DNA from: Deltaproteobacteria bacterium
Lineage (GTDB): Bacteria > CG2-30-53-67
Assembly (NCBI GenBank): GCA_013151235.1
Contig: JAADIO010000055.1
Coordinates: 39,743 to 103,742 of the forward strand
Reading direction: 5' to 3'
DNA: 64,000 nt
Positions 13,120-54,474 of this stretch are shown here, in pieces (within the stretch, counting starts at the first letter, position 1; the number at the start of each line of letters is the position of its first letter). Both the position numbers and the translations under genes were made by a program. The notes under the pieces are model-generated. The model did not search any database. It was not told the DNA's origin and was given only the letters and a program-made list of their open reading frames with translations.

Positions 13120-14408
13120 TGGGCATCTTCCTGGTAGGACTGAGTCACAAAACGGCGCCCGTGGAATTGCGGGAGAAGATCTCCTTTGCCGAAGAGACGA
13201 TCCCGCAAGGACTGGAAAAGCTTCGGGCGGAGTCGATCCCGGAAAACATCATCCTCTCCACTTGCAACCGGGTCGAGATCATCGCTCAATGCGAGGACTG
13301 CGTCAAAGGGATTTCAGCCACGAAAGATTTCCTGTCCGGCGAACACCAGATCCCCCTCGATGAACTGGAGCCTCATCTCTATATCCGGGAAGGCAATGAG
13401 GCAATCCGCCATATCTTCCGTGTCGCTTCCTCGCTTGACTCCATGATGGTCGGGGAGCCCCAGATCCTCGGGCAGTTCAAGAATGCCTTCACGATCGCCT
13501 CGGAGGCCAAGGCGACGGGAATCATCCTGAATCGGCTCATGCACAAGGCCTTCTCCGTGGCAAAAAGGATCAAGACCGAGACGGGGATCGCCCGAAGCGC
13601 CGTTTCCATCAGTTACGCCGCCGTGGAACTGGCCAAGAAGATTTTCGACGATCTGACGGACAAGACCGTCATGCTCATCGGAGCCGGGGAGATGTGCGAA
13701 CTGGCGGCCAAACACCTGATGCAAAACGGCGCGAAAAAAATGCTCGTCACCAACCGGACCTACAGCCGCGCCGTGGAACTGGCACAGGAGTTCAACGGGA
13801 GCGCCATCCGTTTTGAAAATTTCATCGAATCACTGATCCAGACGGACATCATCATCTCCTCCACCGGGGCGCCGCACTATATCCTGCACCACCACGATGT
13901 AAAAGAGGTGATTCACGAACGGAGGAACAAGCCGATCTTCATGATCGATATCGCCGTCCCCCGTGACCTTGATCCGGAAATCAACAAGATCGACAATGTC
14001 TACCTCTACGATATCGACAATCTCCAGGCCGTCGTTGAAACCAACATCGAAGAGCGGAAGAAGGAAGCGGAAAAGGCCGACAGCATCGTCACGCAGGAGG
14101 TCCGGACCTTCGAACAATGGCTCGCCTCCCTGAAGGTCACACCGATGATCGTCCTTCTCCGGGAACGGATGGAGCAGATCCGGCAGGAAGAACTCCGAAA
14201 GACCCTGCCCCGCCTGAACGGAATCTCGGAGAAGGAGAAGAGGTCGATTGAATCGATGTCGATGGCGATCATCAATAAGGTTCTTCACGGCCCGATGAAA
14301 GCCTTGAAGTCGTGTCACCCGGAAGAAAAAGAAACGCTCATGCAGGTGTTGCGGGAGATCTTCCAGTTGGAAGACTCTCCCCGAAAGATCGGGGAAAAAG
14401 ATCGTTAA
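13119..14408 (+). CDS. hemA: Glutamyl-tRNA reductase
   Basis: MGIFLVGLSHKTAPVELREK N-terminus, SSLDSMMVGEPQILGQ and the NAD-binding GAGEM motif. The start is re-set to the internal Met at 13119. Confidence 0.95.
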   Translation: MGIFLVGLSHKTAPVELREKISFAEETIPQGLEKLRAESIPENIILSTCNRVEIIAQCEDCVKGISATKDFLSGEHQIPLDELEPHLYIREGNEAIRHIFRVASSLDSMMVGEPQILGQFKNAFTIASEAKATGIILNRLMHKAFSVAKRIKTETGIARSAVSISYAAVELAKKIFDDLTDKTVMLIGAGEMCELAAKHLMQNGAKKMLVTNRTYSRAVELAQEFNGSAIRFENFIESLIQTDIIISSTGAPHYILHHHDVKEVIHERRNKPIFMIDIAVPRDLDPEINKIDNVYLYDIDNLQAVVETNIEERKKEAEKADSIVTQEVRTFEQWLASLKVTPMIVLLRERMEQIRQEELRKTLPRLNGISEKEKRSIESMSMAIINKVLHGPMKALKSCHPEEKETLMQVLREIFQLEDSPRKIGEKDR

Positions 14409-14440
14409 CCGTGGTATACACTCCATTGTAAGGGAAGAAG

Positions 14441-15373
14441 ATGACAAACTCAAAGGAAGTCCGTATCGGCACACGTGGAAGTCAGCTTGCACTCTGGCAG
14501 GCCAACTGGATCAAATCGACGCTCGAGGCCCGGCATCCCGACCTTGTGGTCTCTTTGGTGAAGATCAAGACCACGGGAGACAAGATCCTCGATGTCCCCC
14601 TGGCCCAGGTCGGCGGCAAAGGACTCTTCGTCAAGGAGATCGAAGAGGCAATGCTTGACGGAAGGATCGACCTGGCCGTCCACAGCATGAAGGATGTCCC
14701 CACCGACCTTCCCGGTCCGCTCCACCTGCCGGTGATCGCCGAACGTGAAGATCCGAGGGACGCCCTCTTGTCGCACGGCAAAGTGTTCGATGACCTGCCG
14801 CAGGGGGCGAAGATCGGTACGAGCAGCCTGCGGCGTCAGGCCCAGCTCCTCCACCGGCGTCCCGATATGGAGATGATCTCCCTCCGGGGGAACCTCGACA
14901 CCCGGATCAGGAAGCTCGACACGGAAGGGCTCGATGCCGTCATTCTCGCCGCGGCGGGAATCCGCAGGATGGGCTGGGCGGAGAAGATCACCCAGATCCT
15001 GCCGACGGAAATCTCTCTGCCCGCCATCGGGCAGGGGGCCGTGGGGATCGAATGCCGCCGGGAGGATCCCCGCATCAATGACCTGATCGCCTTCATCCGT
15101 CATGATGATACCTTCGATGCCGTGGTGGCGGAACGGGCCTTTTTAAAGAAACTTGAAGGGGGTTGCCAGGTCCCGATCGCCGCCTATGCCGAAGTCGACG
15201 GCAAAAATCTGAAACTCCGGGGTCTCGTCGGAAGCGTCGACGGCAAGGAACTGATCGAAGACAAAATCGACGGGCTCCGTACGGACGGCGCCCGTCTCGG
15301 CACCGAATTGGGAGAACGGGTCCTCGCTGCCGGCGCCGGCCGGATCCTCGAAGAGGTTTACAAAAATCAGTAA
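14441..15373 (+). CDS. hemC: Porphobilinogen deaminase (hydroxymethylbilane synthase)
   Basis: VRIGTRGSQLALWQA, GGKGLFVKEIE and SLRGNLDTR motifs. Confidence 0.95.
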   Translation: MTNSKEVRIGTRGSQLALWQANWIKSTLEARHPDLVVSLVKIKTTGDKILDVPLAQVGGKGLFVKEIEEAMLDGRIDLAVHSMKDVPTDLPGPLHLPVIAEREDPRDALLSHGKVFDDLPQGAKIGTSSLRRQAQLLHRRPDMEMISLRGNLDTRIRKLDTEGLDAVILAAAGIRRMGWAEKITQILPTEISLPAIGQGAVGIECRREDPRINDLIAFIRHDDTFDAVVAERAFLKKLEGGCQVPIAAYAEVDGKNLKLRGLVGSVDGKELIEDKIDGLRTDGARLGTELGERVLAAGAGRILEEVYKNQ

Positions 15374-15436
15374 CCCCTTCATTGCAGGCTGTTGTTTTCC
15401 GGTCCCTCTTCGCGACAAGGAGGACACAGGAACATT

Positions 15437-17026
15437 ATGGATTGGACGGACAAAAAATCCCCCCCGGCCCCTCTTTTACAAGGTGGAGAGAAATCATCCA
15501 TCAAAGGAAAAGTCTTTCTCCTCGGCGCCGGTCCCGGCCACCCGAAGTTGATCACCCTCCGGGCGATCGAATGTATCCGGGATGCCGAGGTCATCATCTA
15601 CGACTACCTGGCCAATCAGAAATTCCTTCAGTATGCCCCGAAGGGGTGCGAGATCATCTATGCCGGGAAGACGAGCGTTCACCATACCCTGCATCAGGAT
15701 GAAATCAATCAGCTCCTCATCGACAAGGCCCGTACGGGAAAAACGGTGATCCGGCTCAAGGGGGGAGATCCCCTCCTTTACGGACGCGGCGGGGAAGAGG
15801 CGGAAGGACTCGCCCGGGAGGGGATCCCCTTCGAGATCGTCCCCGGCATCCCGGCGGCTACCGCCATTGCGGCCTATGCCGGGATCCCTCTGACCCACCG
15901 TGACTCAGCGTCTACGGTCGCCTTTATTACAGGGCACGAAGGATCGGGCAAGAGCGGCCCGCCCGTGGACTGGGAAAAGATCAGCACCGGCGTCGGCACG
16001 GTCGTCATCTACATGGGGGTCGGCAACCTGCAGGAAAATACCCGTAAACTCATGGAACACGGACGGGCGCCCGAAACCCCGACGGCCCTCGTCCGCTGGG
16101 GTACGACGCCGGAGCAGGAGATCCTCATCGGGACCCTGGCCGACATCTACGAGAAGGCCCGGACGGCACACTTCAAGGCCCCGGCCATCATGATCGTCGG
16201 CGAAACGGTCCGGCTCCACGACAAACTCCACTGGACCGATCAACTCCCCCTCTTCGGCCGCCGGATCGCCCTCACCCGGGAACGGGAGAACGCCGGACTC
16301 TTTTCCAAGGAACTGGAGCGGCTGGGGGCGGTGATCTACTACCTCCCCGCCATCAGCATCTTTTCCCCGGAAGAGTTCGGGATCGTCGATCAGGCCATTG
16401 AAGAAATCGAACAGTTCGACTGGATCATATTTACGAGTGCCAACGCCGTCCGATATTTTCTTGATCGTCTGATCAAGAAGAATCGGGATGTGCGTGATCT
16501 GAAAGGGATTTCGATCTGCACCGTGGGGACCGCCACGGCCCGGTCTCTAAAAACCCGGGGGATACGGACCGACCTCATCCCCGAGGAGTTCACCGGGGAA
16601 GGCGTCGTTGCCGCCCTGCTGAAGGAGGGAGATCTTCCGGGGAAGCGGGTTCTGATCCCCAGGGCGGAAAAGGCGAGGGAAGTGGTCCCCGATGCCCTCC
16701 GGGAGGCAGGCGCCGAGGTCGTCGTGGCCACGGTCTACCGGAATCTTGCCCCGGAGATTGACGCACAGGCACTCCAGGAGATCCTGATCAACCGCAAGGC
16801 AGACCTGATCGTCTTTACCAGTCCATCGAATATCAGAAATTTTGTCCGGTCCGTGCAGAAAGAAGGACTGCAGAAAACCCTGCCGGGAATCAGGACCGCA
16901 TGCATCGGTCCGGTCACGGCAAAGGCGGCGAAAGAAGCCGGGCTCGATGTTGTCGTTGAACCGGAGAAATCGACACTCGAGTCGGTCTCTGAAGCGATCC
17001 GGAAATATTTCGCTGAAAAACAATGA
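15437..17026 (+). CDS. cobA/hemD: Bifunctional uroporphyrinogen-III C-methyltransferase / uroporphyrinogen-III synthase (CobA-HemD fusion)
   Basis: N-terminal VFLLGAGPGHPKLITLRA SAM-dependent tetrapyrrole methylase domain and C-terminal HemD-like domain. Start chosen at the Met after the AAGGAGG SD. Confidence 0.9.
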   Translation: MDWTDKKSPPAPLLQGGEKSSIKGKVFLLGAGPGHPKLITLRAIECIRDAEVIIYDYLANQKFLQYAPKGCEIIYAGKTSVHHTLHQDEINQLLIDKARTGKTVIRLKGGDPLLYGRGGEEAEGLAREGIPFEIVPGIPAATAIAAYAGIPLTHRDSASTVAFITGHEGSGKSGPPVDWEKISTGVGTVVIYMGVGNLQENTRKLMEHGRAPETPTALVRWGTTPEQEILIGTLADIYEKARTAHFKAPAIMIVGETVRLHDKLHWTDQLPLFGRRIALTRERENAGLFSKELERLGAVIYYLPAISIFSPEEFGIVDQAIEEIEQFDWIIFTSANAVRYFLDRLIKKNRDVRDLKGISICTVGTATARSLKTRGIRTDLIPEEFTGEGVVAALLKEGDLPGKRVLIPRAEKAREVVPDALREAGAEVVVATVYRNLAPEIDAQALQEILINRKADLIVFTSPSNIRNFVRSVQKEGLQKTLPGIRTACIGPVTAKAAKEAGLDVVVEPEKSTLESVSEAIRKYFAEKQ

Positions 17027-17030
17027 TGGT

Positions 17031-17177
17031 CTCGTAAAAAGTCGTTTTTCGGATTCCGTTCATGGTTCGACAGGCTTCCGAGCATGGTGAGCTTGCCGAA
17101 CCACACGAACGGGGAATATCAAAGACTTACACCGTTCGCCCTGAGCGTGTCGAAGGGTCGAACGGACTTTTTACGAG
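17031..17177. mobile_element. MITE/REP-like element, copy A (147 bp, 13-bp terminal inverted repeats CTCGTAAAAAGTC/GACTTTTTACGAG, long internal palindrome)
   Basis: Perfect TIRs are visible in the sequence. It shares an exact 31-nt core (CTTCCGAGCATGGTGAGCTTGCCGAACCACA, 17075-17105) with copy B and begins 4 bp after the cobA/hemD stop. Confidence 0.5.
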
Positions 17178-17221
17178 TCCATCAACAATCGAACCAGAAA
17201 ATTTAAAAGGGAGATGCCATC

Positions 17222-18205
17222 ATGTTTTTCCCCAGCTACCGTCCGCGCCGGGTACGGAAAAATGAACAGATCCGAAGAATGGTCCGGGAGACCCGGCTCT
17301 CCGTGGACAACCTGATCTACCCCCTGTTCGCCATTCATGGCAAGAAGGTCAAAAATGAGATCCCTTCCATGCCGGGAAACTTCCAGCTCTCTGTGGAGAA
17401 CCTCGTCCGGGAAGCCCGGACGGTCTACAAGCTCGGCATCCCGGCCGTCCTCCTCTTCGGGATTCCGAAGAGGAAAGATGCCGTCGGCTCCGGGGCCTAC
17501 GACGAACACGGCATCATCCAAACCGCCGTCCGGTCGATCAAGGACAAGATCCCGGAGCTGATCGTGATCACGGATGTCTGTCTCTGCGAATATACCGATC
17601 ACGGCCATTGCGGGATCGTCGAGAACGGCGAAATCCTGAACGACCCGACGCTGGAACTCCTCGCGAAGGAAGCGGTATCCCACGCCCGGGCCGGGGCCGA
17701 CATCATCGCCCCTTCGGACATGATGGACGGCCGGGTCGGCGCCATCCGGGAGGCTCTCGATGAAGAAGGTTTTGATGACACACCGATCCTCTCCTATGCC
17801 GTCAAATATGCCTCCGGATTCTACGGTCCCTTCCGGGATGCAGCGGAATCGACACCCGGTTTCGGCGACCGCGCCTCTCACCAGATGGACCCGGCCAACA
17901 CCCGTGAGGCCATGCGGGAGGCGGAGCTGGATGTCTCGGAAGGGGCGGACATGCTCATGGTCAAACCAGCGCTTCCCTACCTCGACATCATCTACCGGGT
18001 GAAGGAGGAATTCGATCTGCCTGTGGCCGCCTACAACGTCTCCGGCGAATTCTCCATGATCAAGGCCGCAGCAAAACAGGGGTGGCTCGACGAGAAACGG
18101 GTGATGATGGAATCGTTGATCTCGATCCGGCGGGCCGGCGCCGACATGATCCTCACCTACTGGGCGAAGGATGCCGCAAAACTGCTTCAGAAACAGCAAC
18201 CATAA
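17222..18205 (+). CDS. hemB: Porphobilinogen synthase (delta-aminolevulinate dehydratase)
   Basis: RPRRVRKNE...LIYPLF N-terminus, active-site [10 protein letters not shown] region, and a Cys-rich metal site ([14 protein letters not shown]). Confidence 0.95.
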
Positions 18206-18260
18206 AAAAAGAAGACCGGAATCGCCGTTTCTGATAGAATAAAAGACGGGAGGAGGACAA

Positions 18261-18527
18261 ATGTTCATTCGGCGATTTCATAGTGAAATCATCTTTCATC
18301 TCTTCAGCCTGATCTTTTTCGACCTGATCTATTTCATCGTCCTCATGTTGCTCCTGTTGCAGCATGAGGCGCTGTGGTTAGGCCTCGGGTCTCTTCTCGT
18401 CTTCGGCTACCTGCATCTCCGTTACTTCCGGAGTTTCTGCCGGGAGATCCGCTGGACCTACGTCACACCTCATCTTGTTTTCCCCTGCCTTTTGACGTTG
18501 GTCGCCTTTTTGACCTACGCGCCATGA
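18261..18527 (+). CDS. Small hydrophobic protein (88 aa, 2-3 predicted TM helices), hypothetical
   Basis: A strong SD (GGGAGGAGG) lies 7 bp upstream of the ATG. Two long hydrophobic stretches. It sits between hemB and hemL. Confidence 0.4.
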   Translation: MFIRRFHSEIIFHLFSLIFFDLIYFIVLMLLLLQHEALWLGLGSLLVFGYLHLRYFRSFCREIRWTYVTPHLVFPCLLTLVAFLTYAP

Positions 18528-18587
18528 AACAGGGTTCAAACTGCTTAAACCATTCAAACCGTTTAGAGAACAGACAGCCTCTTTCCA

Positions 18588-18617
18588 TTGACAGAACCTC
18601 CTGAAAATGTTACTAAT
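18588..18617 (+). promoter_or_regulatory. Sigma-70-type promoter candidate for hemL (TTGACA-N17-TACTAAT)
   Basis: Consensus -35 hexamer at 18588-18593 and -10-like TACTAAT at 18611-18617 with a 17-nt spacer, about 40 bp upstream of the hemL ATG. Confidence 0.45.
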
Positions 18618-18655
18618 CTTCTCATTAATTCAGGGATTCAGAAGGAGAATCAGAC

Positions 18656-19936
18656 ATGTCGAACCGTTCCGAAGAACTCTTTGTCCAAGCACAGAAATTC
18701 ATCCCCGGCGGGGTCAACAGCCCGGTGCGGGCCTTCAAGTCGGTGGGAGGCAGTCCCGTTTTCATCGACCGATCCGAAGGAAGCCGGATCTTCGATGTGG
18801 AGGGCCGGGCCTATATCGACTACATCGGTTCCTGGGGACCGATGATCGTGGGACATTCCCATCCACGGGTCGTCGAAGCCCTCAAAAAAGCCATCGACAA
18901 GGGGACGAGTTTCGGCGCTCCGACGGTGTTGGAGACCGAACTGGCGCAGAGGGTGATCCAGGCCGTCCCCTCCGTGGAAATGGTCCGGATGGTCAACTCC
19001 GGCACGGAGGCAACGATGAGCGCCATCCGGGTTGCCCGGGGCTATACCGGACGGGACAAGATCATCAAGTTCGAGGGGTGCTACCACGGCCATGCCGACG
19101 GCCTGCTCGTTAAGGCCGGCTCCGGCGCCGCCACCTTCGGAGTCCCGACCAGTCCCGGCGTCCCCGCTGATTATGCAAGGAACACTCTCACCGCCCCCTT
19201 CAACAATCTTGAGGCCGTGGAGAAGCTCATCGCCGAAGAGGGAGACGATATCGCCTGCATCATCGTTGAGCCGTTGCCGGGAAACATGGGCGTCGTCCCC
19301 CCGAAGGCGGGTTTCCTGGAGGAACTCCGGAAGATCACGGCGGAAAAGGGGATCGTGCTGATCTTCGATGAAGTCATGTCCGGTTTCCGTGTCGCCTACG
19401 GCGGCGCCCAGGAACGCTTCGGGATTACACCCGATATGACGACCCTTGGAAAGGTGATCGGCGGCGGACTTCCCGTCGGCGCCTACGGCGGGAAGAAGGA
19501 GATCATGGAACAGGTCTCTCCTTCCGGCCCGGTCTACCAGGCCGGGACCCTCTCGGGGAATCCTCTCGCCATGACGGCCGGAATCGAGACCCTGAAGATC
19601 CTCTCCGAACCGGGCGTCTACGACCAATTAGAGGAGAAATCGACGAAGCTCTGCAAGGGGATCCGGGAGGCCTTTGCGGAAGCCGGTGTTCCCGCCTTCC
19701 ACACCCAGGTGGGTGCCATGTTCTGTACCTTCTTCAACAACGGGGAAGTGACCGACTACACCTCGGCGGCCCGATCCGACACGGAACGGTTCGGGAAGTA
19801 CTTCCATAACATGCTGGAACAGGGGATCAACCTGGCGCCGTCCCAGTTCGAAGCGGCCTTCATGTCTCTGGCCCACTCCGATGAGGATATTGCAAAGACA
19901 ATCGACGCCTGCCGGAAGAGCTTACGGAAACTTTGA
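18656..19936 (+). CDS. hemL: Glutamate-1-semialdehyde 2,1-aminomutase
   Basis: [14 protein letters not shown] motif, a PLP-lysine region and aminotransferase class III architecture. Confidence 0.95.
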
Positions 19937-27608: not shown

Positions 27609-28160
27609 ATGTTAGATCCCAAAACGGTTACTTTATATACAGGCGGTCACAAAGGCACCGAAGAATATTTTGGAATATCCGCCGAAAAGTGGGGAATGAA
27701 AGAGGTGACCTTCAACTTTGAAGGACATGAAATCAACCGTCGGCGGGGATTGAAAATCCTGTCCGAGGAGGAACTCCTGCGTGGCGCCGTCGGCCCGGAC
27801 ATTATCCAGAAACGTATGGAACGTACATTCGCGACCACCCCCATCATGCAGAAAATATTTCAGATCCAGTTTCATATTATCAACAACGGTTATCAGGTTT
27901 TCGCTGTCGGCTGGTTATTGTCAAACGGAACGGTCAAAGGCGGCACCGGCTGGGGAGTGGAACTGGCAAAGTTATTCAACCGCCCGGTGCATCTCTTTGA
28001 GCAGGAGAGGAAGGAGTGGGTCTCCTGGGTCCACAATGAGTGGATCACGGAGGAACCCGTCATCGCACATAAAACACTGGCCATGACGGGGACACGATAT
28101 TTGAGCGAAGATGGCAAAGCTGCCATAGATCAGCTCTTCGAACGGTCGTTCAATGGTTAA
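27609..28160 (+). CDS. Hypothetical Rossmannoid protein, possibly nucleoside 2-deoxyribosyltransferase/DNPH1-like or SLOG-like
   Basis: N-terminal TLYTGGHKGTEEYF and central GGTGWGVELAKLFNRPVHLF loosely resemble the GS(I)RGG and SLGVGYELG motifs of the DNPH1/NDT fold. It lies on an AT-richer islet with its own promoter-like AT-rich upstream region. Confidence 0.35.
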   Translation: MLDPKTVTLYTGGHKGTEEYFGISAEKWGMKEVTFNFEGHEINRRRGLKILSEEELLRGAVGPDIIQKRMERTFATTPIMQKIFQIQFHIINNGYQVFAVGWLLSNGTVKGGTGWGVELAKLFNRPVHLFEQERKEWVSWVHNEWITEEPVIAHKTLAMTGTRYLSEDGKAAIDQLFERSFNG

Positions 28161-28323: not shown

Positions 28324-29109
28324 CTACAGCTTGGGTCCGTTCTCGGAATAGAGGCTTTGATGGAAGTGCCGGGCAAAGCTCATGACAAAGAGGAGACTCT
28401 GCCGAACCTCGGGATCCCGGGCCGCTTTCCAGAGGGCCGGCAGCCCGGCCTTCTTCGGCTGATCTTTCATCTCCGCCATCGCTTCCTGTGCACTTTCCAC
28501 CGCCGCACCGATCAGGTCTTGAATCTGGGGGTTCATAAGACGGCTCACCAGATTCTCAAACATGCTCAACATCCGCTCGACGATGCTGTCGGTAAAGGCA
28601 TGCGTCGTCGAACCGAGAAACGTCGCCATCTGAGTCAGGACTTCCAGACTACCACTGTTAATCAACTCCTCAATCGCCGGCATCGCCCGCATTAGGTCCG
28701 CTTTTGCCAGTTCATCCAACAGGGCCATCATCGTTTCCATGTTTGCAGCCATCCGTGCAATGACGCTGTCTCCCATGGAGTTTTTGGCCGCACTGATGAA
28801 GAGGGCCACCTCCTTGAGATCATTCAGAGAGCCACTTTGGTACAACTCCGTCAGGGTCCGGACTGATTGCTGCACGGCCTGAAAGACTTCGGGCTTCGCC
28901 ACCTGATCGGCCAGAGCCGTCAGGGGCTCCATGATCGCGGCCATCCGCTCGATCATGGGGTCGGTTTGTGAATCCTTGTAGGCCTGAATCGCCCCGGCGA
29001 CCTCCGACAGAGTCTCCGCATGGTTCCGGAGACCATCGATGGAATTCGAACCGGCCTGCATCATCGTCGGTAGATCCGGTTCCCGTAGCTCTTTATTCTG
29101 CATGGACAT
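28324..29109 (-). CDS. DUF1641 domain protein
   Basis: Helical protein of ~260 aa encoded immediately downstream (14 bp) of an SQR-like flavoprotein, which is the usual genomic partner of DUF1641. Confidence 0.65.
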   Translation of the reverse strand: MSMQNKELREPDLPTMMQAGSNSIDGLRNHAETLSEVAGAIQAYKDSQTDPMIERMAAIMEPLTALADQVAKPEVFQAVQQSVRTLTELYQSGSLNDLKEVALFISAAKNSMGDSVIARMAANMETMMALLDELAKADLMRAMPAIEELINSGSLEVLTQMATFLGSTTHAFTDSIVERMLSMFENLVSRLMNPQIQDLIGAAVESAQEAMAEMKDQPKKAGLPALWKAARDPEVRQSLLFVMSFARHFHQSLYSENGPKL

Positions 29110-29123
29110 ATCGTGCCTCCCTC

Positions 29124-30263
29124 TCAGAGTATGCCCCGAGCGCTTAACCAGTAAAGGCGGTTGTAGGCCAGTTTGAACCAGTGAATCATCTGAGACGGCT
29201 CCCCGGGATTGGGCGGCGTGTTGTAGTTGAACCAGACATAGGTCCCCTCCTCGAGACTGGTTTCCACGAAGCAGAAAACCTTTCCGTCATATCGGCGCCC
29301 CGGGCATCCCTCTTTAATCATGCAGATCAGTGATTCCGCAACGGTGTCGGCCTCGAAGTGGGCGGTCGATCCTGCCTTACTGATGGGAATATTGGTGGTG
29401 TCCCCCACCACAAAGACATTCTCCTTCCCTGCCATGGTCAGGCTGTGCTTATCCGTCGGGATCCAGCCGTCGGCGCCGAGGCCGGATTCTTCAATAAGGG
29501 GCATACCCTTGTGCGGGGGCACAGCAATGAGAAGGTCATAGTCCAGCGTGGATCCTTCCTCGCTGTGAATCTGCTTCTTCAGCGGATCGACCTCCTTCAT
29601 GTTGAAGAAGGTTTCATACCGGATTCCCCGACGTTCGAAGGCCTTGACCGCCCACTGGGCAACCGGCTCCAGGACATGGACCCGGGCAATGGGATAGGTA
29701 TAGAAGAGTTCGTACTTCTCTTTCAGACCGTTTTGGGAGAAAAGGTCGTCGAGCATGAAAGTGACTTCCAGGGGCGCCACGGGACACTTATGGGGAACAC
29801 CGACGGAAACGACAATCCGCCCCCCCTCAAACTCCTTCAACGCCTTCCGGAGTTTTTTGGCTCCGGCAAGATCATAGAACCAGTGCGCGCCCTCCTTGAG
29901 GCCGGGGACTTCCTCGGGGACAATTCTGGAACCGGTGGCAATGACCAGGTAGTCGTAAGGGAAGGACCTTCCGCTCTGCGCCGTGACCGTCTGACTCTCG
30001 GTGTCGATCTTCACGGCAGGGTCGACGTAGAGGTTGATCAGCGGGTCGAGGAGCCCGCGTTGATCCCGGATAATCTCATCGTCCTGCATCCGGCCAAAGG
30101 CGACGTAGAGAAAACCCGGCTGATAGACATGTTTCTCCGAAGCGCTGAGCATGTTGACGGTGACCTCTCCGCTGCGCAACTCGGTCCGCAAACCCCGGGC
30201 CAGCAGGTTGGCGACAATCGTCCCGCCTGTCCCCCCTCCGATAATAACGATACGCTTTCCCAT
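29124..30263 (-). CDS. sqr: Sulfide:quinone oxidoreductase-like NAD(P)/FAD-dependent disulfide oxidoreductase
   Basis: MGKRIVIIGGGTGG FAD-binding N-terminus (start set after the GAGAGGAGG SD), second nucleotide-binding motif VFVVGD, and conserved Cys residues. Confidence 0.8.
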   Translation of the reverse strand: MGKRIVIIGGGTGGTIVANLLARGLRTELRSGEVTVNMLSASEKHVYQPGFLYVAFGRMQDDEIIRDQRGLLDPLINLYVDPAVKIDTESQTVTAQSGRSFPYDYLVIATGSRIVPEEVPGLKEGAHWFYDLAGAKKLRKALKEFEGGRIVVSVGVPHKCPVAPLEVTFMLDDLFSQNGLKEKYELFYTYPIARVHVLEPVAQWAVKAFERRGIRYETFFNMKEVDPLKKQIHSEEGSTLDYDLLIAVPPHKGMPLIEESGLGADGWIPTDKHSLTMAGKENVFVVGDTTNIPISKAGSTAHFEADTVAESLICMIKEGCPGRRYDGKVFCFVETSLEEGTYVWFNYNTPPNPGEPSQMIHWFKLAYNRLYWLSARGIL

Positions 30264-30402
30264 GCGATGCCTCCTCTCTGACGGCGTTTCCGACCCACCG
30301 TCCATTCAGGCCACACGCTTCATTCAGATCCGGCTCCTTCTGCGATTCTCTCCCCGGGCCGGCCCCGGAATCCGCAAGATGGAGCCCCCTTTATGAGATC
30401 AT

Positions 30403-30639
30403 CTATTTAACTTTCTTCACCACGATGCTCCAGAATCCATCCTTTTCTTCGGCGCCGAGATACTCCTGCCCCACTTTGTGGATCCACTCCGGAATGTCTT
30501 TGGCGGACCCTTGGTCGGACGAGAGGACTTCGATCACCGTACCGACCGGTTCGCTCTTCATCATGCGGATCAGTTCCATCAGCGGTCCAGGACAGTAGGA
30601 ATCCCGTGCATCCACACTCTTGTCAATGGTCAGATTCAT
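30403..30639 (-). CDS. tusA: TusA-like sulfurtransferase
   Basis: 78 aa with the CPGP active-site motif (YCPGPLMEL). Confidence 0.8.
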   Translation of the reverse strand: MNLTIDKSVDARDSYCPGPLMELIRMMKSEPVGTVIEVLSSDQGSAKDIPEWIHKVGQEYLGAEEKDGFWSIVVKKVK

Positions 30640-30665
30640 TTCGCGGCCTCCTTTCGACTACAGGT

Positions 30666-31070
30666 CTAAAGATTGATAATATTATACCCTTCTGCGTCCA
30701 CGAGAAACTTCGTCATCCCTGCGACTTCGTCGAAGACGTCCTCCTCAAGGTCCGCCTCCGTCATACCGAGTACCTCCATCGCCATGGGACAGGCATAGAT
30801 CTTTGCCGCACCGAACTCCCGTGCCTGCCGGAAGAGATCGAGATAGGGGGGAACCTTCTTCGCTTGCAGGACCTTTGAAAAATCCGCCCCGGAGAAACGT
30901 TCTTCGTCACCAATCCCCTTCCGGAACTTCCGAATCGCCCCCATAGAGACGAAGAGCAGGACCTCAATCCCGGACACGGCCGCCACCGAGGCAATCATGC
31001 CGGCAAGCTGAACCTTTACATAGTCCTCGGATGAGAGGATGATTGCGATCTTTCTTCCCTCTGCCGTCAT
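30666..31070 (-). CDS. dsrE: DsrE/DsrF-like sulfur relay family protein
   Basis: 134 aa with a DsrE-like fold signature (IAIILSSEDYVKVQLA...YACPMAMEVLG, conserved Cys). Confidence 0.75.
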   Translation of the reverse strand: MTAEGRKIAIILSSEDYVKVQLAGMIASVAAVSGIEVLLFVSMGAIRKFRKGIGDEERFSGADFSKVLQAKKVPPYLDLFRQAREFGAAKIYACPMAMEVLGMTEADLEEDVFDEVAGMTKFLVDAEGYNIINL

Positions 31071-31130
31071 AAGCCCTCCTTACGCAACCCCTGGAATCTT
31101 TCCATCCTTTGCCTTCCTCCCTGTTAAAAA

Positions 31131-31145
31131 GCAAAGGAGATGCCA
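31131..31145 (-). promoter_or_regulatory. Sigma-54 (-24/-12) promoter upstream of dsrE-tusA-sqr-DUF1641
   Basis: Minus-strand sequence TGGCATCTCCTTTGCT matches TGGCAC-N5-TTGCW with exact GG/GC spacing. It lies about 60 bp upstream of the dsrE ATG. Confidence 0.6.
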
Positions 31146-31167
31146 AATATTCACAAATATGAATATT
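31146..31167. promoter_or_regulatory. Perfect 8-bp-arm palindrome AATATTCA-N6-TGAATATT abutting the -24 element
   Basis: Seen directly in the sequence. Candidate IHF or auxiliary regulator site. Confidence 0.3.
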
Positions 31168-31243
31168 TTCGATAACCCGATGATTTGACGTCTTTTTTTT
31201 GATTAGTTTGAAAGGAATTTCAACAAGCGGGACGCCCTCGATT

Positions 31244-31289
31244 TGCAGAAATGAGAATTGAGGCGAAATTCCGGTCGCAAAATTGAGAA
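31244..31289. promoter_or_regulatory. Two direct repeats GCAnAAATGAGAA spaced 32 bp apart (candidate enhancer/UAS for the adjacent NtrC-type activator)
   Basis: TGCAGAAATGAGAA (31244-31257) and CGCAAAATTGAGAA (31276-31289) sit about 100-145 bp upstream of the -24 element. Confidence 0.3.
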
Positions 31290-31324
31290 GGGAAGAGATG
31301 AAGACAAAATTCTTTTGTGGGGGA

Positions 31325-32671
31325 TTATTCTTTCTGTTCCAGTTTCCTGTAGAGCGTCGCCAGACTGATCCCAAGTCGTTCCGCCGCTTTCTGCTTGTCG
31401 CAGCCGGACCGTTCAAGAACCCCTTCAATATGCATCCTTTCGTAAACCCGGAGTGCGCTTTTTAGATTTTCTCTGGAGAGGGTCTCGGAGCGGCGATCCC
31501 CCTCCAGGAGATTCGGCGGCAGGTCTTCCGGTTGCAGCGTGGGAGGCGTCCCGAGAATCATGCTTCGTTCCATGACATTTTCCAGTTCCCGGATATTGCC
31601 TTTCCACCGGTACCCGGACAGAACCCGCAGAACCTCCGGGGAGACATCCCGGAACCGGCGGTTCATTTCAAGATTGTACTTCCGAATAAAATGATTGACC
31701 AACAGAGGGAGATCATCGATCCGCTCCCGCAATGGAGGGACCTTGATCTCTACAATATTGAGCCGATAGTAAAGATCCTCCCGGAAGGTCCCGGCATTCA
31801 TCCGCTCCTGAAGATCCTGATGGGTCGCTGCGATGAGACGGATATCAACCTTGACTCGTTCCGTCCCTCCCACAGGCAGGATCTCCTTTTCTTCAATAGC
31901 CCGAAGGAGCTTGGTCTGGAGCCCAACGGAAAGGTCCCCTATCTCATCGAGAAACAGGGTCCCCTCGTTAGCGACCTCAAAGAGCCCCTTCCTGTCTTCC
32001 TGCGCATCGGTGAAGGCCCCCTTGCGATAGCCGAAAAGCATGGAATCAAGGAGGGTCGCAGGAATGGCACAACAATTGACGGGAATGAACCGTTTCGCCC
32101 GCCGGTCACTCCTGTTGTGAATAGCCCGGGCCACTAATTCCTTGCCGGTCCCGCTCTCCCCCGTAATCAGGACAGTCCCCTTGGAAGAGGCCACCCTTTT
32201 GATCAATTCCAGCATCTCCCGAACCGGTTGAGACTGCCCGATAATATCGGAGAAATCGTATCGGCCTGCGACCTCTTCCCGAAGGAGCCGGTTATCCTCG
32301 GTCAGGTCGGTGAGTTGAAACAGCTTTTTGATCCGGAAGACGACGTCATCCAGGAGAAAAGGTTTGATGATGTAATCCACCGCACCCTGCCGCAGGGCCT
32401 CCACCGCCGTATCGACGGAAGCATAGGCCGTCATCATGACCACCGGCGTGCCGGGCCGGGAGGTCTTAATCCGTCGGAGCAGATCAATCCCGTTTATGCC
32501 GGGCATCCGAATGTCGCAGATGACGGCATCGAAAGCAATGCGATCGAAGAGTGTCGAGGCCTCATCTCCGTCGGCCGCCGTCACCGGGCTGTATCCTTCC
32601 TCGGCAAGAACCGACGACAGGGATTCCCGGATGGTTGTCTCATCATCAACGATAAGAATTTTCTTTGACAT
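31325..32671 (-). CDS. Sigma-54-dependent Fis-family response regulator (NtrC-type: REC + AAA+ + HTH)
   Basis: N-terminal REC domain (ILIVDDE...D at the phospho-site), GESGTGKE Walker A, GAFTGA-type region and a C-terminal HTH. Confidence 0.9.
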   Translation of the reverse strand: MSKKILIVDDETTIRESLSSVLAEEGYSPVTAADGDEASTLFDRIAFDAVICDIRMPGINGIDLLRRIKTSRPGTPVVMMTAYASVDTAVEALRQGAVDYIIKPFLLDDVVFRIKKLFQLTDLTEDNRLLREEVAGRYDFSDIIGQSQPVREMLELIKRVASSKGTVLITGESGTGKELVARAIHNRSDRRAKRFIPVNCCAIPATLLDSMLFGYRKGAFTDAQEDRKGLFEVANEGTLFLDEIGDLSVGLQTKLLRAIEEKEILPVGGTERVKVDIRLIAATHQDLQERMNAGTFREDLYYRLNIVEIKVPPLRERIDDLPLLVNHFIRKYNLEMNRRFRDVSPEVLRVLSGYRWKGNIRELENVMERSMILGTPPTLQPEDLPPNLLEGDRRSETLSRENLKSALRVYERMHIEGVLERSGCDKQKAAERLGISLATLYRKLEQKE

Positions 32672-32677
32672 CTTCCC

Positions 32678-33847
32678 TCACTCCTGTCGACTGCAACTCA
32701 ATTCCAGGGGAAGGAAAACCCGGAAGGTACTCCCTTTCCCCGGACAACTTTCAACTTCAATTCTACCACCGAGACTTTCCATAACACCGTAGCTGATAAA
32801 GAGTCCCAGCCCCGTGCCGCGTCCCACGTCCTTGGTGGTGAAAAAGGGCTCAAAGATCTTCGGCACAATCTCGGGAGGGATCCCCGTTCCCGTATCTGAA
32901 ATTTCGATGACGACCCATTCCCCGGCCCGGCAAGTCTCTAACGTCAGGGTTCCCTCTCCCTCCATAGCATCGGCGGCATTGATCATCAGGTTCATCAAGA
33001 CCTGCAACAGGGAATCACGCACCAGTTCCAGCGGGGGGAGCTTAGGATCAAAGTCGGTGACGATCCGAAGCCCGGCGGCCGTCTGGTTGTACTTTAGAAA
33101 AGCCAGCGCATTCTCCAGGACCTCCCGCAGATTCACCCGCTCCGTCCCTTTCCGGGCGGGCCGGGAAAAATCGACCAACTCCCGTACGATCCCTGAAATC
33201 CGGTTGATATGGGTCAGGATCGATGCCAGCCTTTCTTCGTTCCCGGGATCATCGATCCTGCGCCGGATCAATTGAACCAGCGTGGAGATCGAGGCAAGTG
33301 GATTCCCCACCTCATGCGCAATCCCCGAAGCCAGAAGCCCCAAGGCGGCCATCTTCTCCTGGTGAACAAGTTGAGCCTGGGATTCCCGGAGCTGAAGCGT
33401 CGCTTCCCGTACCCGTCTCTCAAGTCTCCGTTCGGCTTCCAGAATCTGTTCCATTTTCCGGTCCAGACTGAACATCATATCATTGAAGAGTTCCCCCATC
33501 TTGTCGGTGGGATTCTTCGTCGCCGCCTGAAAAACTTCACATTGCCGACAATCCTCTAATGGGTGAACCCGATTATGAGAGGGGGACTTCCCACAGTAGG
33601 TCCCGGCAATCTGCCAGCAACGGAGATTGGCGGACTGATAGGCAGGACAATCCTGTCGGAAGCACCGGGTCATCTCCCAACACCGAAGGAGACGGGGATT
33701 TTCGAAGCGGGTCTTAAAATCCCGGCTCTGTTCCGCCTCAAAAAAGAGGCGGCCCAATTCCGTGGTCAGCCGTTCGAACTCCGTCTTGCAATCCTTCAGT
33801 TCCTTCAGCTCCGCCCGCAGATTACGGACGTTCTCTTCTCCTGCCAT
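32678..33847 (-). CDS. Soluble sensor histidine kinase with an N-terminal cysteine-rich domain
   Basis: HEVGNPL H-box, N/G1/G2 boxes (GTGLGLFIS) and no TM segment. The N-terminal region carries 7 Cys (C-x5-C-x4-C-x9-C-x7-C-x14-C-x2-C). Confidence 0.85.
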
Positions 33848-35444
33848 GGCATTCCAACCCCTCCATCCCCAGTAAAGACAATACACAATATACCCCATCC
33901 AGGGCGGAGCTGACAATTCCCCCGGCATAGCCGGCCCCCTCCCCTAAAGGATAGAGACCTCTCACCGTCACTGAGGCGTAATCCTTTCCCCGGACAAGCC
34001 GTACCGGAGAAGAGGTCCGGGTCTCCACACCGATCAGGATTCCGTCCTCGGAGATAAAACCGGGAATTTTCTTCCCCCAGACCCGCAGCGCCCCCTTGAG
34101 CCCCGTCGTCACAAAATCGGGCAACACTGCGTGGAGGTCACAGGAGTAGACCCCCGGCCGGTAGGTCGTTTCCGGAAGACTGGACGAAACAGTCCGCCTC
34201 AGAAAATCAGTAACCCGCTGTGCCGGTGCGGAGTAATTCTCTCCCCCCGCTCGAAAGGCCGCCTCCTCCCACTTTCTCAGAAAGGCAAGACCTGCGAGAG
34301 GCCCCCGGCCCGAAAAGTCCTCCCTGCGAACCGATACCACCAGACCGCTGTCGGCATAGCCGCTTGCCCGGCCAAAACGGCTCATGCCGTTGGTGACGAT
34401 CCGACCCGGCTGAGAATTAGCTGCAATCACCTGCCCGCCGGGACACATGCAGAAGGTATAGACCCCGCGATCCTGTTTACGATCCCGGTAGGTTAAACGA
34501 TAACGGGAGGGACCGAGCCTCGGATGACCCGCCCACCGGCCATATTGAACCCGGTCGAGCCTCCCCTGGGGATGTTCAATCCGGACTCCGACGGCCAAGG
34601 GCTTTTGTTCCATCGCGACGCCGGCCCGCTCCAGAACGGCATAGGTGTCTTCCGCCCCATGGCCTGTTGCCAAAACGAGCCGGTCCGTTTCAATTTTTTC
34701 CCCGTTCTCCAACCCAAGACCACACAACCGGCCATTCTTCACAAGAATTCCGGTCATCCGGCTTCCAAAACGGACTTCGCCCCCGAGAGACTCAATCTCT
34801 TTTCGCAGGGCAACAATCACGCCCCGAAGCCGGTCGGTCCCAATATGAGGATAGGCCTCGTAGAGAATTTCCGAAGGTGCCCCGGCTTTTACAAATTCGG
34901 AGAGAAGCCAGGGAATCATCGCCGACCGTTTTCCCGTGGTCAGTTTTCCGTCGGAGAAGGTCCCGGCCCCTCCCTCTCCGAAACAGACGTTGCTCTCGGA
35001 CCGGAACACCCCCTTCGACCAGAAGGTGGAGACATCCCGGACCCGTTCCTGCATGGGACGTCCCCGTTCAAGAACGATCGGCTCCGCCCCCGCCCGGGCC
35101 AGGAGAAGGGCGGCGAAGATCCCGGCGGGACCAAAGCCGACGACGACCGGCCTTTTATAAAAACTTTTCTTGTGAAGTACGAAAGGCGGCCCCGGAGGCA
35201 TCACGATTTCGGCCGAAATACCTTCTTTTTCTCTGATGATCTTGAGGAGTTCTTCTTCCCCATCCGCGGAAATTTCAACCGTATAGAGAATGCGAACATC
35301 GTGACGTGCATCAATGGAACGTTTCAGAATGTGGAGGGAACGGATCCGGCCGGAGGGAATGTGGAGAAGGTCGGCCAGCACATCTTTCAAATCCCTGCGA
35401 TCTTCGTCAGGAGTGAGCCGAATTTCTCGAATTGAAAAAGGCAT
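33822..35444 (-). CDS. Uncharacterized FAD-dependent dehydrogenase (COG2509-like)
   Basis: VVGFGPAGIFAAL dinucleotide-binding motif and the overall ~540-aa COG2509 architecture. Confidence 0.7.
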   Translation of the reverse strand: MPFSIREIRLTPDEDRRDLKDVLADLLHIPSGRIRSLHILKRSIDARHDVRILYTVEISADGEEELLKIIREKEGISAEIVMPPGPPFVLHKKSFYKRPVVVGFGPAGIFAALLLARAGAEPIVLERGRPMQERVRDVSTFWSKGVFRSESNVCFGEGGAGTFSDGKLTTGKRSAMIPWLLSEFVKAGAPSEILYEAYPHIGTDRLRGVIVALRKEIESLGGEVRFGSRMTGILVKNGRLCGLGLENGEKIETDRLVLATGHGAEDTYAVLERAGVAMEQKPLAVGVRIEHPQGRLDRVQYGRWAGHPRLGPSRYRLTYRDRKQDRGVYTFCMCPGGQVIAANSQPGRIVTNGMSRFGRASGYADSGLVVSVRREDFSGRGPLAGLAFLRKWEEAAFRAGGENYSAPAQRVTDFLRRTVSSSLPETTYRPGVYSCDLHAVLPDFVTTGLKGALRVWGKKIPGFISEDGILIGVETRTSSPVRLVRGKDYASVTVRGLYPLGEGAGYAGGIVSSALDGVYCVLSLLGMEGLECHGRRRERP

Positions 35445-47644: not shown

Positions 47645-49405
47645 CTACTCCTCGGCCTCCTCTTCCCATTCCGGCTCATCCGGGAACATCGACTGCATTC
47701 GTTCTTTTGTCCACTCCTCAATCTCCCGGGCGGTCGCGAGGTTGAGAATCTCTCTGGCCAGTTTTCGGGAATCCTTCAGGGTCACCTGCCGGAGGATACG
47801 CTTGACCCGTGGAACGGCAACCGGGTTCATACTGAAGGTCTGAAGCCCCAGTCCTAAAAGAGCCGCTGCATAGAGAGGATCTCCGGCCACCTCGCCGCAC
47901 ATCGCCGCCGGAATATTTGCCTCCCGGGCAACCGTCATGACATGCTTGATCATTCGGATAATCGCCGGATGCAAAGGTTCATAAAGGTAGGCGACGTGCT
48001 CGTTGACTCGGTCAATGGCCAGGGAATACTGGATCAGATCATTGGTCCCGATGCTGACGAAATCAACCTCGTTGACGATCAGATCGATGGCAATCGCTGC
48101 GGATGGAACCTCGATCATCACGCCCAGGGGAATTTCCTCTTGAAAGAGTACCCCCTCTCTCCGAAGATCCTCCAATACCCCGTAGTAGATCTCCTTGGCC
48201 ATCCGCAGTTCCCGGAGACCTGAAATCATAGGGAACATGATCTTCAGATTCCCGTAAATTCCGGCCCGTGCCAGTGCACGAAGCTGTGTCCTGAAGATGT
48301 CCGGGTGTTCCAGGCAAAAACGGATTGCACGTAATCCCATGGCAGGATTGCTCTCTCCGGGGTAAGGAATGTGCCGCGCCAGTTTGTCCCCGCCCAGGTC
48401 CAGGGTTCGAATGATCACCGTCTCCGGATAGATGATCTCCAGGGCACTCTTGTAGGCCTGGAACTGGTCTTCCTCGCCCGGAAGTTCCGTGCGGTTGAGA
48501 TAGAGAAATTCCGTCCGGAAAAGTCCCACGCCGTCGGCACCGTGTTCCAAAACTCCGCAAACATCTTCGGGGGTCTCAATATTCGCCGCCAGGCGGATTT
48601 TATGCCCATCCAGGGTCTCCGCCGGCAACGGGGACAGCTTCTGCAGTTCCTTTTCAAAATAGATATAGCGACGCTGCTTTTCCAGATACCGATTAAAGGT
48701 TTTGCTGTCCGGATTGACGATCACGGTCCCGCTGTTGCCGTTTAAGATCAGGGGATCACCGGTTTGAACCCGGGCCGTAAAATGGACCATGCCGACCACG
48801 GCCGGAATTTCCAGCGAGCGGGCCATAATCACCGTGTGACTCGTTTTACCTCCCAGATCGGTTACAAACCCTTTGACATGCTTCCGGTCCATTTGCATGG
48901 TATCCGCCGGCGTCAGATCATGGGCCACCACAATCACATCTTCGTTCAGGCCGGCAAGACTGTGCTGCTCACGGCCGGAGAGATTACGCAGGATTCGTTC
49001 CCCCACATGGATCATGTCGGATTTCCGTTCCTTCAGATAATCGTCTTCAATCCCGTTAAAAACCGTCAGGAACTGATCCAGAACTTTTTTCAAGGCGCCA
49101 TCCGCGGCGATCTCCTCCCGACGGATCACATCTCGGACCCCGTCGATCAGGAGAGTGTCCTGAAGCATCAGGATATGACTTTCAAGAATATAGGCATGAG
49201 AAGCGCCGACACGGTTGCTGAACTGTTTTTTTACGGACTGAAGCTGTTCCACCGAGATTGAAAGGGCCTGATCAAACCGCCGGATCTCTTCGTCCACTCG
49301 GTCCGGTGGAATCGACTGGACTTCCGCCTTGACCATTTCCCGGTTCAGCACATAGGCCTTCCCAATCACGATCCCGGGCGAGACCCCCATCCCTTTGAAT
49401 TTCAT
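47645..49405 (-). CDS. ptsI: Phosphoenolpyruvate-protein phosphotransferase (PTS Enzyme I)
   Basis: GMGVSPGIVIGKA N-terminus, the phospho-His region GGKTSHTVIMAR, and a PEP-utilising C-terminal domain. Confidence 0.95.
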   Translation of the reverse strand: MKFKGMGVSPGIVIGKAYVLNREMVKAEVQSIPPDRVDEEIRRFDQALSISVEQLQSVKKQFSNRVGASHAYILESHILMLQDTLLIDGVRDVIRREEIAADGALKKVLDQFLTVFNGIEDDYLKERKSDMIHVGERILRNLSGREQHSLAGLNEDVIVVAHDLTPADTMQMDRKHVKGFVTDLGGKTSHTVIMARSLEIPAVVGMVHFTARVQTGDPLILNGNSGTVIVNPDSKTFNRYLEKQRRYIYFEKELQKLSPLPAETLDGHKIRLAANIETPEDVCGVLEHGADGVGLFRTEFLYLNRTELPGEEDQFQAYKSALEIIYPETVIIRTLDLGGDKLARHIPYPGESNPAMGLRAIRFCLEHPDIFRTQLRALARAGIYGNLKIMFPMISGLRELRMAKEIYYGVLEDLRREGVLFQEEIPLGVMIEVPSAAIAIDLIVNEVDFVSIGTNDLIQYSLAIDRVNEHVAYLYEPLHPAIIRMIKHVMTVAREANIPAAMCGEVAGDPLYAAALLGLGLQTFSMNPVAVPRVKRILRQVTLKDSRKLAREILNLATAREIEEWTKERMQSMFPDEPEWEEEAEE

Positions 49406-49687: not shown

Positions 49688-49736
49688 GCCTTTCTATCAC
49701 CATACACGGCACAACCGGGGATCCCTTGCGGATATG

Positions 49737-51274: not shown

Positions 51275-51326
51275 GAGTTCCTCCGCCTTCCCACCGATAA
51301 TCCGAATCGTAGAAACTCTCCGAATT

Positions 51327-51800: not shown

Positions 51801-51853
51801 TATTTTCTTCCCGGGAGCCGGGACATTTCCGGCTCAGTCCATGAGCAGCTGCA

Positions 51854-54361: not shown

Positions 54362-54474
54362 GGAACCCCCCTGCCTTTCAGGCTACAGTCGAGCCAGGGC
54401 CGTTGACGACTCTCCGGGGATCGTTTCTGAAAAGAACGGACGGAACAAAAAATGACGGAGGCGGAAAAAGGATT

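Follow-up and report, generated by a model that had tools for sequence, protein, structure and literature searches.

A two-CW kinase, an NtrC-type regulator and a sigma-54 promoter as a probable switch for a sulfide:quinone oxidoreductase–DUF1641 cassette

Overview of the locus

Does a two-component system that lies directly upstream of a sulfur-handling operon control that operon, or do the two merely adjoin? The question is raised by positions 28324-35444 of a 64-kb stretch of deltaproteobacterial DNA (contig JAADIO010000055.1; the whole stretch is hereafter the window). Genes for an FAD-dependent flavoprotein, a histidine kinase and a sigma-54-dependent regulator (the trio) are followed there by a -24/-12 promoter and by dsrE, tusA, a gene for a sulfide:quinone oxidoreductase (SQR) and one for a DUF1641 protein (the cassette). 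Open reading frames (ORFs) with Pfam and NCBIfam domains gave seven genes in this region, all on the minus strand. The original prediction, made from the sequence alone, had counted eight, but all of its domain assignments were borne out by Pfam and NCBIfam profile searches. Since the domains were confirmed and the strict promoter pattern proved enriched over expectation, the arrangement is a real observation beyond chance. Our preferred reading, to which we assign a probability of about 0.6, is that the trio, acting through the sigma-54 promoter, would switch a sulfide-oxidation cassette equipped with a DUF1641 conduit.

A sigma-54 promoter kept with the regulator

The sigma-54 promoter (TGGCATctcctTTGCT; TGGCAT-N5-TTGCT) was located at 31130-31145 on the minus strand, 60 bp 5' of the dsrE ATG, as the original prediction had it. 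The strict pattern TGGCAY-N5-TTGCW occurred twice in the 64-kb window against 0.06 expected, and none of 100 shuffled sequences (0/100) gave two. Transcription is predicted to start near 31119-31120, with a leader of ~50 nt, and the dsrE start is preceded by a good AGGAGG ribosome-binding site. The window also carries rpoN, whose product such a promoter requires, at 55744-57231 on the minus strand, with the Pfam domains Sigma54_AID, Sigma54_CBD and Sigma54_DBD and in the canonical cluster lptB-rpoN-hpf-ptsN-hprK-rapZ.

We compared eight genomic contexts of the trio, namely the window and the related loci L083, L084, L085, L088, L089, L090 and L091 (L-numbers here and below are labels of the related loci compared). 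A sigma-54 promoter was found directly 3' of the regulator gene in five of the eight (window, L083, L084, L089 and L090). The most informative of these was L083, where the identical 16-mer TGGCATCTCCTTTGCT stands behind the regulator orthologue although the cargo genes differ, and where a further ~90 bp of DNA 5' of the promoter could be aligned, including an IHF-like sequence (AATCAYYGGGTTA). Because L083 shares both the promoter and the upstream DNA despite its different cargo, the promoter is part of the regulator's half of the locus, and its retention with the regulator indicates that cargo has been exchanged behind it.

The same promoter-upstream DNA contains candidate binding sites for the regulator. 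Matches to TTCTCA-N4-TGAGAA with at most two mismatches numbered 13 in 138.7 kb of these loci, eight of which fell inside the 240-bp zones upstream of promoters (binomial p 6e-13, for a motif chosen post hoc), and TGAGAA/TTCTCA was the only one of 2080 hexamer pairs common to all eight promoter-upstream zones. In the window, two of the three matches in 64 kb lie within the 180-bp spacer before the promoter. Candidate activator site 1 (TTCTCAATTTTGCGAC; 31274-31289, minus strand) lies at approximately -144 from the -24 element, the same position as in L083 and L084, and candidate site 2 (TTCTCATTTCTGCAAA; 31242-31257, minus strand) stands at approximately -112, 32 bp from site 1. The corresponding positions were -143/-110 in L083, -144 in L084 and -114 in L090, and at -110 the L083 counterpart of site 2 is a palindrome without mismatch (TTCTCATTGTTGAGAA). 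The interval from the activator sites to the promoter holds AATCATCGGGTTA (31173-31185, minus strand), presumably an IHF-like site, with one mismatch to WATCAANNNNTTR, which we take to be the IHF consensus; it is kept in L083 as AATCATTGGGTTA. Judged from these conserved sequence elements, the regulator probably drives whatever cargo occupies the slot behind the promoter.

The other strict sigma-54-type match in the window (TGGCATGGGATTTGCT; 8323-8338, minus strand) lies ~170 bp 5' of a methylenetetrahydrofolate reductase gene (7275-8150, minus strand), and no TTCTCA-N4-TGAGAA site was found near it. Beyond the rpoN cluster, the region 47645-58000 holds genes for mannose-family phosphotransferase system (PTS) components EIIA/B/C/D and a PTS enzyme I gene (47645-49405).

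The trio in other genomic contexts

Full-length orthologues of the kinase are rare (~9 in 5.8 billion proteins), and a metagenome scan with the kinase alignment added a single orthologous locus, L091. The flavoprotein, kinase and regulator genes were found together in seven of the eight contexts, the flavoprotein gene being absent from L090, and the trio follows rpoD-PRT-metK-ahcY in the window, L083 and L085. What comes after the regulator varies. In the window it is dsrE-tusA-sqr-DUF1641. In L083 and L090 the regulator is followed by genes for a putative cytochrome and a split YeeE/YedE and by a 71-aa ORF, to which L083 adds a TorD-like chaperone and a Psr/Phs-like molybdoenzyme with FeS and NrfD subunits (these sulfur-related sets span 9090-15440 in L083 and 3876-6045 in L090). 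Cytochrome b and a multihaem cytochrome c follow in L084, a multihaem cytochrome c and cytochrome b561 in L089, and an M56 peptidase in L085, L088 and L091. The idea that the whole block forms one dedicated sulfur-handling module therefore had to be given up, the regulators and the cassette being separately conserved units.

The flavoprotein (540 aa; 33822-35444, minus strand) is of the FAD-depend_C/COG2509 type and VP0956 family, matching Pfam FAD-depend_C at 2.3e-72 and PDB entry 3nlc, 'uncharacterized protein VP0956', at E 1.2e-142. Its gene overlaps the kinase gene by 26 nt, and in most contexts its stop codon overlaps the kinase start, an arrangement indicative of translational coupling. 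It may be an obligatory part of the sensor, being coupled in most contexts, yet it is absent from L090 and belongs to a widespread family.

In one Hainich groundwater sample, the trio (L085/L086) and the cassette (L003; binned as H32-bin143) were found on separate contigs of similar coverage. In L085, a cluster for sulfur-carrier-protein biosynthesis occupies 13474-19131, ~2 kb downstream of the trio, in the order PALP, ThiS, NIL, NIL, ThiF, JAB, DsrE, DsrE, unassigned small ORF, TusA, PALP.

The regulator and the two-CW kinase

The regulator (448 aa; 31325-32671, minus strand) comprises a receiver, Sigma54_activat, AAA_lid_14 and HTH_8 domains (Pfam Response_reg 8e-31, Sigma54_activat 1.5e-70, HTH_8 6e-11), that is, the receiver, AAA+ sigma-54 domain and Fis-type helix-turn-helix of the NtrC family. 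Residues D9, D10, D53 and K103 are invariant, the Walker A sequence GESGTGKE is present, and the helix-turn-helix is nearly invariant among orthologues. The gene begins 6 nt after that of the kinase and ends 254 nt before dsrE.

The kinase (HisKA and HATPase_c; 389 aa; 32678-33847, minus strand) was identified by Pfam and NCBIfam and by the public annotation of an identical protein. An extended ORF of 416 aa was set aside, as that annotation gives 389 aa with the start at 33847. The order of parts is an N-terminal coiled coil, a two-CW domain, a HAMP-AS2-like helix, HisKA and HATPase_c. No transmembrane-like segment was seen, the highest 19-residue Kyte-Doolittle mean being 1.01, so a periplasmic sensing domain is excluded and the earlier description of a soluble, cysteine-rich kinase holds; the cysteine-rich stretch is N-terminal.

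Pfam gave no meaningful match to the kinase N-terminus. NCBIfam placed the two-CW model NF045718 there at 33 bits, under its cut-off of 35 (E 5.8e-8), with its core at residues 56-103 (33539-33682, minus strand), and this is the only input domain of the kinase. The cysteine pattern is C-W-x4-C-x4-C-P-x8-C-W-x6-C-x14-C-x2-C, and its seven cysteines and both CW motifs were invariant in eight orthologues and 72 diverse relatives, which suggests a metal-thiolate or Fe-S centre. The module terminates in a GELFNxMM helix, which in our own reading resembles the second HAMP helix; the nearest non-orthologous kinases carry HAMP upstream of HisKA at the place where this kinase has two-CW. A full HMMER scan gave 819 cluster representatives of the domain, and among the 72 sampled proteins its partners were HisKA/HATPase (42), receiver (20), HAMP (16) and GGDEF (10), as well as PAS, GAF, HD, EAL and MCP. 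Our literature search on the two-CW domain found no papers. Tandem copies of two-CW were present in two orthologous kinases of 495-498 aa (L088 1679-3166 and L091 9001-10485; P0123 and P0124).

The SQR cassette and its DUF1641 partner

The SQR (29124-30263, minus strand; Pyr_redox_2) was assigned by NCBIfam and by its homologues as a type III-like enzyme. Its start is the second methionine, giving 379 aa as in all homologues. More than 7000 relatives were present in the databases searched; those at 62-68 % identity came from Nitrospirota, Alphaproteobacteria and Gammaproteobacteria and were nearly all of 379 aa, and with each GTDB species represented by a single genome, 514 encoded relatives were counted. 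The N-terminal FAD-binding motif IIGGGTGG is present, and Cys160 (VPHKCPVAP) and Cys331 (KVFCFVE) are invariant and align with the catalytic cysteines of human SQOR. The best solved relatives of the SQR profile were human SQOR (1e-40), then Acidianus 3h8i and Aquifex 3hyv. Against the NCBIfam exception model SQR_III_seleno ('type III SQR, selenoprotein subtype') the protein scored 339 bits (E 3.9e-101), below the cut-off of 525, as expected for a protein with cysteine and not selenocysteine. Past the aligned core, the protein extends by 23 aa, where solved SQRs have 40-54 aa, a comparison that covers solved type I, II and V enzymes only, and the C-terminus (residues 357-379) consists of a single short amphipathic helix with invariant aromatics.

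Upstream of sqr are the genes of two single-cysteine carriers. The TusA-family protein (78 aa; 30403-30639, minus strand) matched PF01206 at 66.6 bits and 1.7e-18, its only cysteine being Cys16 in YCPGP, which contains the CPGP motif. The DsrE3-like protein (134 aa; 30666-31070, minus strand) matched PF13686 (DrsE_2) at 43 bits and PF02635 (DsrE) at 35 bits, and its single Cys94, in YACPMAME, aligns with the cysteine of PDB 2qs7 (1.8e-12). The intergenic gaps are 26 nt (dsrE-tusA), 139 nt (tusA-sqr) and 14 nt (sqr-DUF1641).

Cassette neighbourhoods were counted in 82 retrieved loci. Directly behind sqr, a homologous DUF1641-type ORF was found in 82 of 82, and tusA lay directly upstream of sqr in every one that reached that far. 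Most also had dsrE before tusA, several Nitrospirota loci being without it. The closest relatives, with SQRs 81-88 % identical, carry the cassette between recJ and DUF456-secFD.

The partner protein in the window (261 aa; 28324-29109, minus strand) scored 31.1 bits with PF07849, above the cut-off of 21 (E 2.2e-7; residues 216-249). It is composed of 64-aa helical repeats followed by the C-terminal DUF1641; relatives of 325 aa are exactly one repeat longer than the 261-aa form, and most proteobacterial versions have 165-190 aa. As the repeat number varies, the length of a putative tube would differ between lineages. Searched against 177,635 PDB sequences, the partner profile returned HucM (E 0.016), ForE1 (0.028) and Ncp (0.043) as three of its top four matches. 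These solved DUF1641 proteins (HucM, ForE and Ncp/YjlC) scaffold a soluble quinone-reducing enzyme, provide its membrane attachment and pass quinone through a hydrophobic tube (PMC13524794, PMC8808070). SQR and Ndh, the enzyme partnered by Ncp, are members of one flavoprotein superfamily, and 9pxk_C was among the SQR profile matches. By analogy with HucM, ForE and Ncp, we infer that the SQR clade may reach quinone through a DUF1641 conduit. Discussion of the SQR–DUF1641 pairing was not found in the literature searched; an Ignicoccus proteome table does list the two genes as neighbours that are induced together.

Several features of the cassette and its surroundings are recorded here as side observations. 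In the 139-bp tusA-sqr spacer (30264-30402) lies a GC-rich palindrome (CCGGGGCCGGCCCGGGG) that is not followed by a T-tract; it may serve in mRNA processing or stability and so set the carrier:enzyme ratio. A second, divergent tusA, ~1 kb upstream of sqr and 5' of dsrE, is present in many proteobacterial cassettes (L011, L016, L037, L041, L054, L059, L061, L066-L068, L071 and L082), and in L171, from a Nitrospirae-labelled clade, an additional TusA of 110 aa is encoded between tusA and sqr (8300-8632). Convergent with the window cassette is a 183-aa ORF (27609-28160, plus strand) without Pfam or NCBIfam match.

Comparison with known systems

The cargo had been put forward as a new sulfur-trafficking set, a claim that does not survive comparison, as the cassette is widespread and its core is known as a sulfide-induced operon. 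In Methylacidiphilum fumariolicum SolV, the type III SQR-TusA-DsrE2 operon MFUM_v2_0219-21 is up-regulated by H2S and proposed to convert sulfide to sulfur with quinone as acceptor (PMC10205796). The window shares the same three gene families, the likeness being one of family as described, and since the same core operon is H2S-induced and assigned to sulfide oxidation in Methylacidiphilum, the cargo is a known kind of system. Neither a DUF1641 partner nor a sigma-54 promoter nor a two-component regulator is described in the Methylacidiphilum paper, whereas the window has all three.

Sigma-54 two-component control of sulfur oxidation, likewise suggested as a novelty, has precedents in Acidithiobacillus, with TspS/TspR upstream of sox-II and TcsS/TcsR upstream of tetH (PMC6335251). 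The window resembles TspS/TspR in gene order and promoter, with a kinase and a sigma-54 activator of NtrC/ZraR type directly upstream of a sulfur-oxidation operon, and the TspR site (TGTCCCAAATGGGACA; PMC6335251) is a 6-N4-6 palindrome of the same format as TTCTCA-N4-TGAGAA. It differs in that the Acidithiobacillus systems respond to periplasmic thiosulfate in the review's model (PMC6335251), whereas the window kinase is soluble with two-CW as its only input. The target is also an SQR cassette and not sox or tetH, and orthologous regulators face cargo that differs between genomes.

A different design is that of FisR, which senses persulfide via cysteines of its own regulatory domain. FisR is a one-component sigma-54 activator of sqr-pdo in Acinetobacter baumannii (PMC7315123). 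The likeness to the window lies in sigma-54 activation of a sulfide-oxidation operon; unlike FisR, the window regulator is partnered by a kinase, and its operon lacks pdo. Its canonical receiver domain and adjacent kinase show that the activator is not of the FisR type.

With HucM, ForE and Ncp the window partner shares the scheme of a small helical protein with a C-terminal DUF1641 beside a soluble quinone-reducing enzyme that lacks a full membrane anchor, and Ndh and SQR are homologous flavoproteins with two dinucleotide-binding domains. It is unlike them in having SQR as the enzyme, in its 64-aa repeats of variable copy number and in its weak similarity outside DUF1641. The YTD cluster (yeeE/yedE, tusA-like, dsrE-like, chp1, chp2) of sulfur disproportionators and cable bacteria (PMC13047784) also groups TusA-like and DsrE-like carriers, and YeeE-type genes follow the regulator in L083 and L090. 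The window cassette itself is not a YTD cluster, having no YeeE/YedE and no chp but SQR and DUF1641 instead.

Proposed mechanism and alternative explanations

In the mechanism we propose, a cytoplasmic signal would lead the kinase to phosphorylate the regulator, the most likely signals being reactive sulfur or a redox change at a metal-thiolate centre of two-CW. The regulator would then bind the two TTCTCA-containing sites ~144 and ~112 bp 5' of the -24 element and, assisted by a bend at the IHF-like site, activate the promoter at 31130-31145. The type III-like SQR would oxidize sulfide on Cys160/Cys331 and reduce quinone, handing sulfane sulfur to the single-cysteine carriers TusA and DsrE. 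As the SQR has a short C-terminal helix only, the DUF1641 protein may dock it to the membrane and channel quinone, in analogy to HucM, ForE and Ncp.

Several observations weigh against this mechanism. The trio and the cassette adjoin only in the window among eight trio contexts and ~90 cassette loci. With no kinase/regulator pair upstream of the cassette in any of the 82 related loci, and other cargo behind the orthologous trios, the window arrangement is unique in the sample. The activator motif was chosen after the fact, from sequences that are in part homologous to each other, and the paired site arrangement is absent from L089. The sigma-54 contact loop of the regulator (residues 218-223) reads GAFTDA, not the canonical GAFTGA; F and T are retained, with D instead of G as the fifth residue, and the sequence is invariant in all seven orthologues. 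A terminator-like site was looked for in the regulator-dsrE interval and none was seen, so read-through could also feed cassette expression. Two-CW is a generic rather than a sulfur-specific signalling module, and the PDB matches of the partner (E 0.016-0.043) are individually non-significant. AlphaFold2 models were unusable both for the kinase (mean pLDDT 58, two-CW region below 50) and for the partner monomer, which was all-helical with a mean pLDDT of 36 from a nine-sequence alignment.

The absence of the pair from those 82 loci also raises the prospect that the cassette simply landed beside an unrelated two-component system, its promoter being served by an activator encoded elsewhere. The cassettes of relatives are consistent with this, as they are unlinked, beside recJ, and yet have sigma-54 promoters of their own, which share a different and better-conserved palindrome (TGAGACA-N3-TGTCACA). 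A TTCTCA half-site occurs at -85 or -72 in L003, L171 and L002, and L179 is without TTCTCA; that the regulator acts in trans on recJ-linked cassettes is, from these sequences, a weak possibility. A sigma-54 promoter is not a general feature of the cassette, with loose matches in four of 77 loci and a strict one only in the close relative L003. Incidental adjacency is nevertheless hard to reconcile with a window promoter and ~90 bp of upstream DNA that are homologous to those behind the L083 regulator, where the cargo is different, or with paired TTCTCA sites whose positions agree between the window, L083 and L084, and we consider it unlikely. The neighbourhood survey thus bore out one half of a caveat attached to the original prediction, in that the pair is kept with other targets elsewhere, while the conserved promoter link disfavours the other half, that its place beside the cassette is incidental. 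A far closer competitor, though we would still bet somewhat against it, accepts the regulatory link and has the kinase respond to redox or electron transport in general (oxygen, nitric oxide or redox poise at an Fe-S centre) and not to sulfide or persulfide, making the trio a switch for accessory respiratory modules of any kind. The multihaem cytochromes c with cytochrome b in L084 and L089, the Psr/Phs-like molybdoenzyme of L083, the seven invariant cysteines suggestive of a metal cluster, the many kinds of output domain joined to two-CW and the flavoprotein translationally coupled to the kinase all point that way. Against it, three of the eight contexts are clearly sulfur-related (the window, and L083 and L090 with their YeeE/YedE-type transporters). 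The mixed cargo of sulfur enzymes and cytochromes fits either a sulfide/persulfide or a general redox signal.

Two further alternatives concern the cargo. The best solved relatives of the flavoprotein are all SQRs with both catalytic cysteines aligned, cable-bacterial type III SQRs have equivalent catalytic cysteines, Cys159 and Cys339 (PMC13047784), and the homologous operon is sulfide-induced (PMC10205796). These points make it improbable that the enzyme is something other than a sulfide oxidizer, for example a reductase of persulfide or polysulfide acting on TusA/DsrE-bound sulfur, and menaquinol-driven sulfur reduction would also be unfavourable by our own estimate of midpoint potentials. 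What speaks for such an enzyme is its score below the cut-off of the sole matching NCBIfam SQR model, its constant pairing with sulfur carriers and the lack of an assayed member of the 379-aa clade in the literature searched. The DUF1641 protein, for its part, may be not a quinone conduit but an assembly factor, a sulfur-globule or persulfide scaffold or a regulator of SQR, given that its similarity is confined to the short C-terminal DUF1641, that its N-terminal 64-aa repeats have no significant counterpart and that its monomer model was unusable. We regard this as possible, though on the unlikely side, because one and the same role is shared by all three DUF1641 proteins of solved structure, whose quinone-reducing enzymes are unrelated to one another (PMC13524794); among these enzymes, Ndh is in the flavoprotein superfamily of SQR. 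The invariant pairing with sqr and the short SQR tail also favour the conduit.

Joining the parts of the preferred reading gives a more ambitious picture, which we offer tentatively and would expect to be wrong in some respect rather than right in all. The 379-aa SQR clade, whose relatives occur in 514 species or more, would depart from the classical monotopic membrane enzyme: it would act in the cytoplasm, assembled on a tube of DUF1641 protein set in length by the 64-aa repeats, as a fourth class of DUF1641 conduit after Huc, ForCE and Ndh-Ncp. TusA and DsrE would be its dedicated persulfide acceptors, and in this lineage it would be switched by the seven-cysteine two-CW domain, a hitherto uncharacterized type of cytoplasmic metal-thiolate sensor for reactive sulfur, feeding a sigma-54 cargo slot that holds different respiratory modules in different genomes.

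Biological significance

Both parts of the locus are of known kinds, and current views are not overturned, each element extending a known class; what is new is the putative two-CW sensor with an exchangeable cargo slot and the invariant SQR–DUF1641 pairing, which suggests a quinone conduit. For two-CW, the locus is a tractable entry, offering a minimal soluble kinase, a defined regulator, a promoter and candidate sites. For a widespread SQR clade, it provides a testable model in which DUF1641 would be the route to quinone and TusA and DsrE the sulfur acceptors. In terms of regulatory evolution, the sensor-activator unit appears to keep its promoter while respiratory and sulfur cargo is swapped behind it between related genomes.

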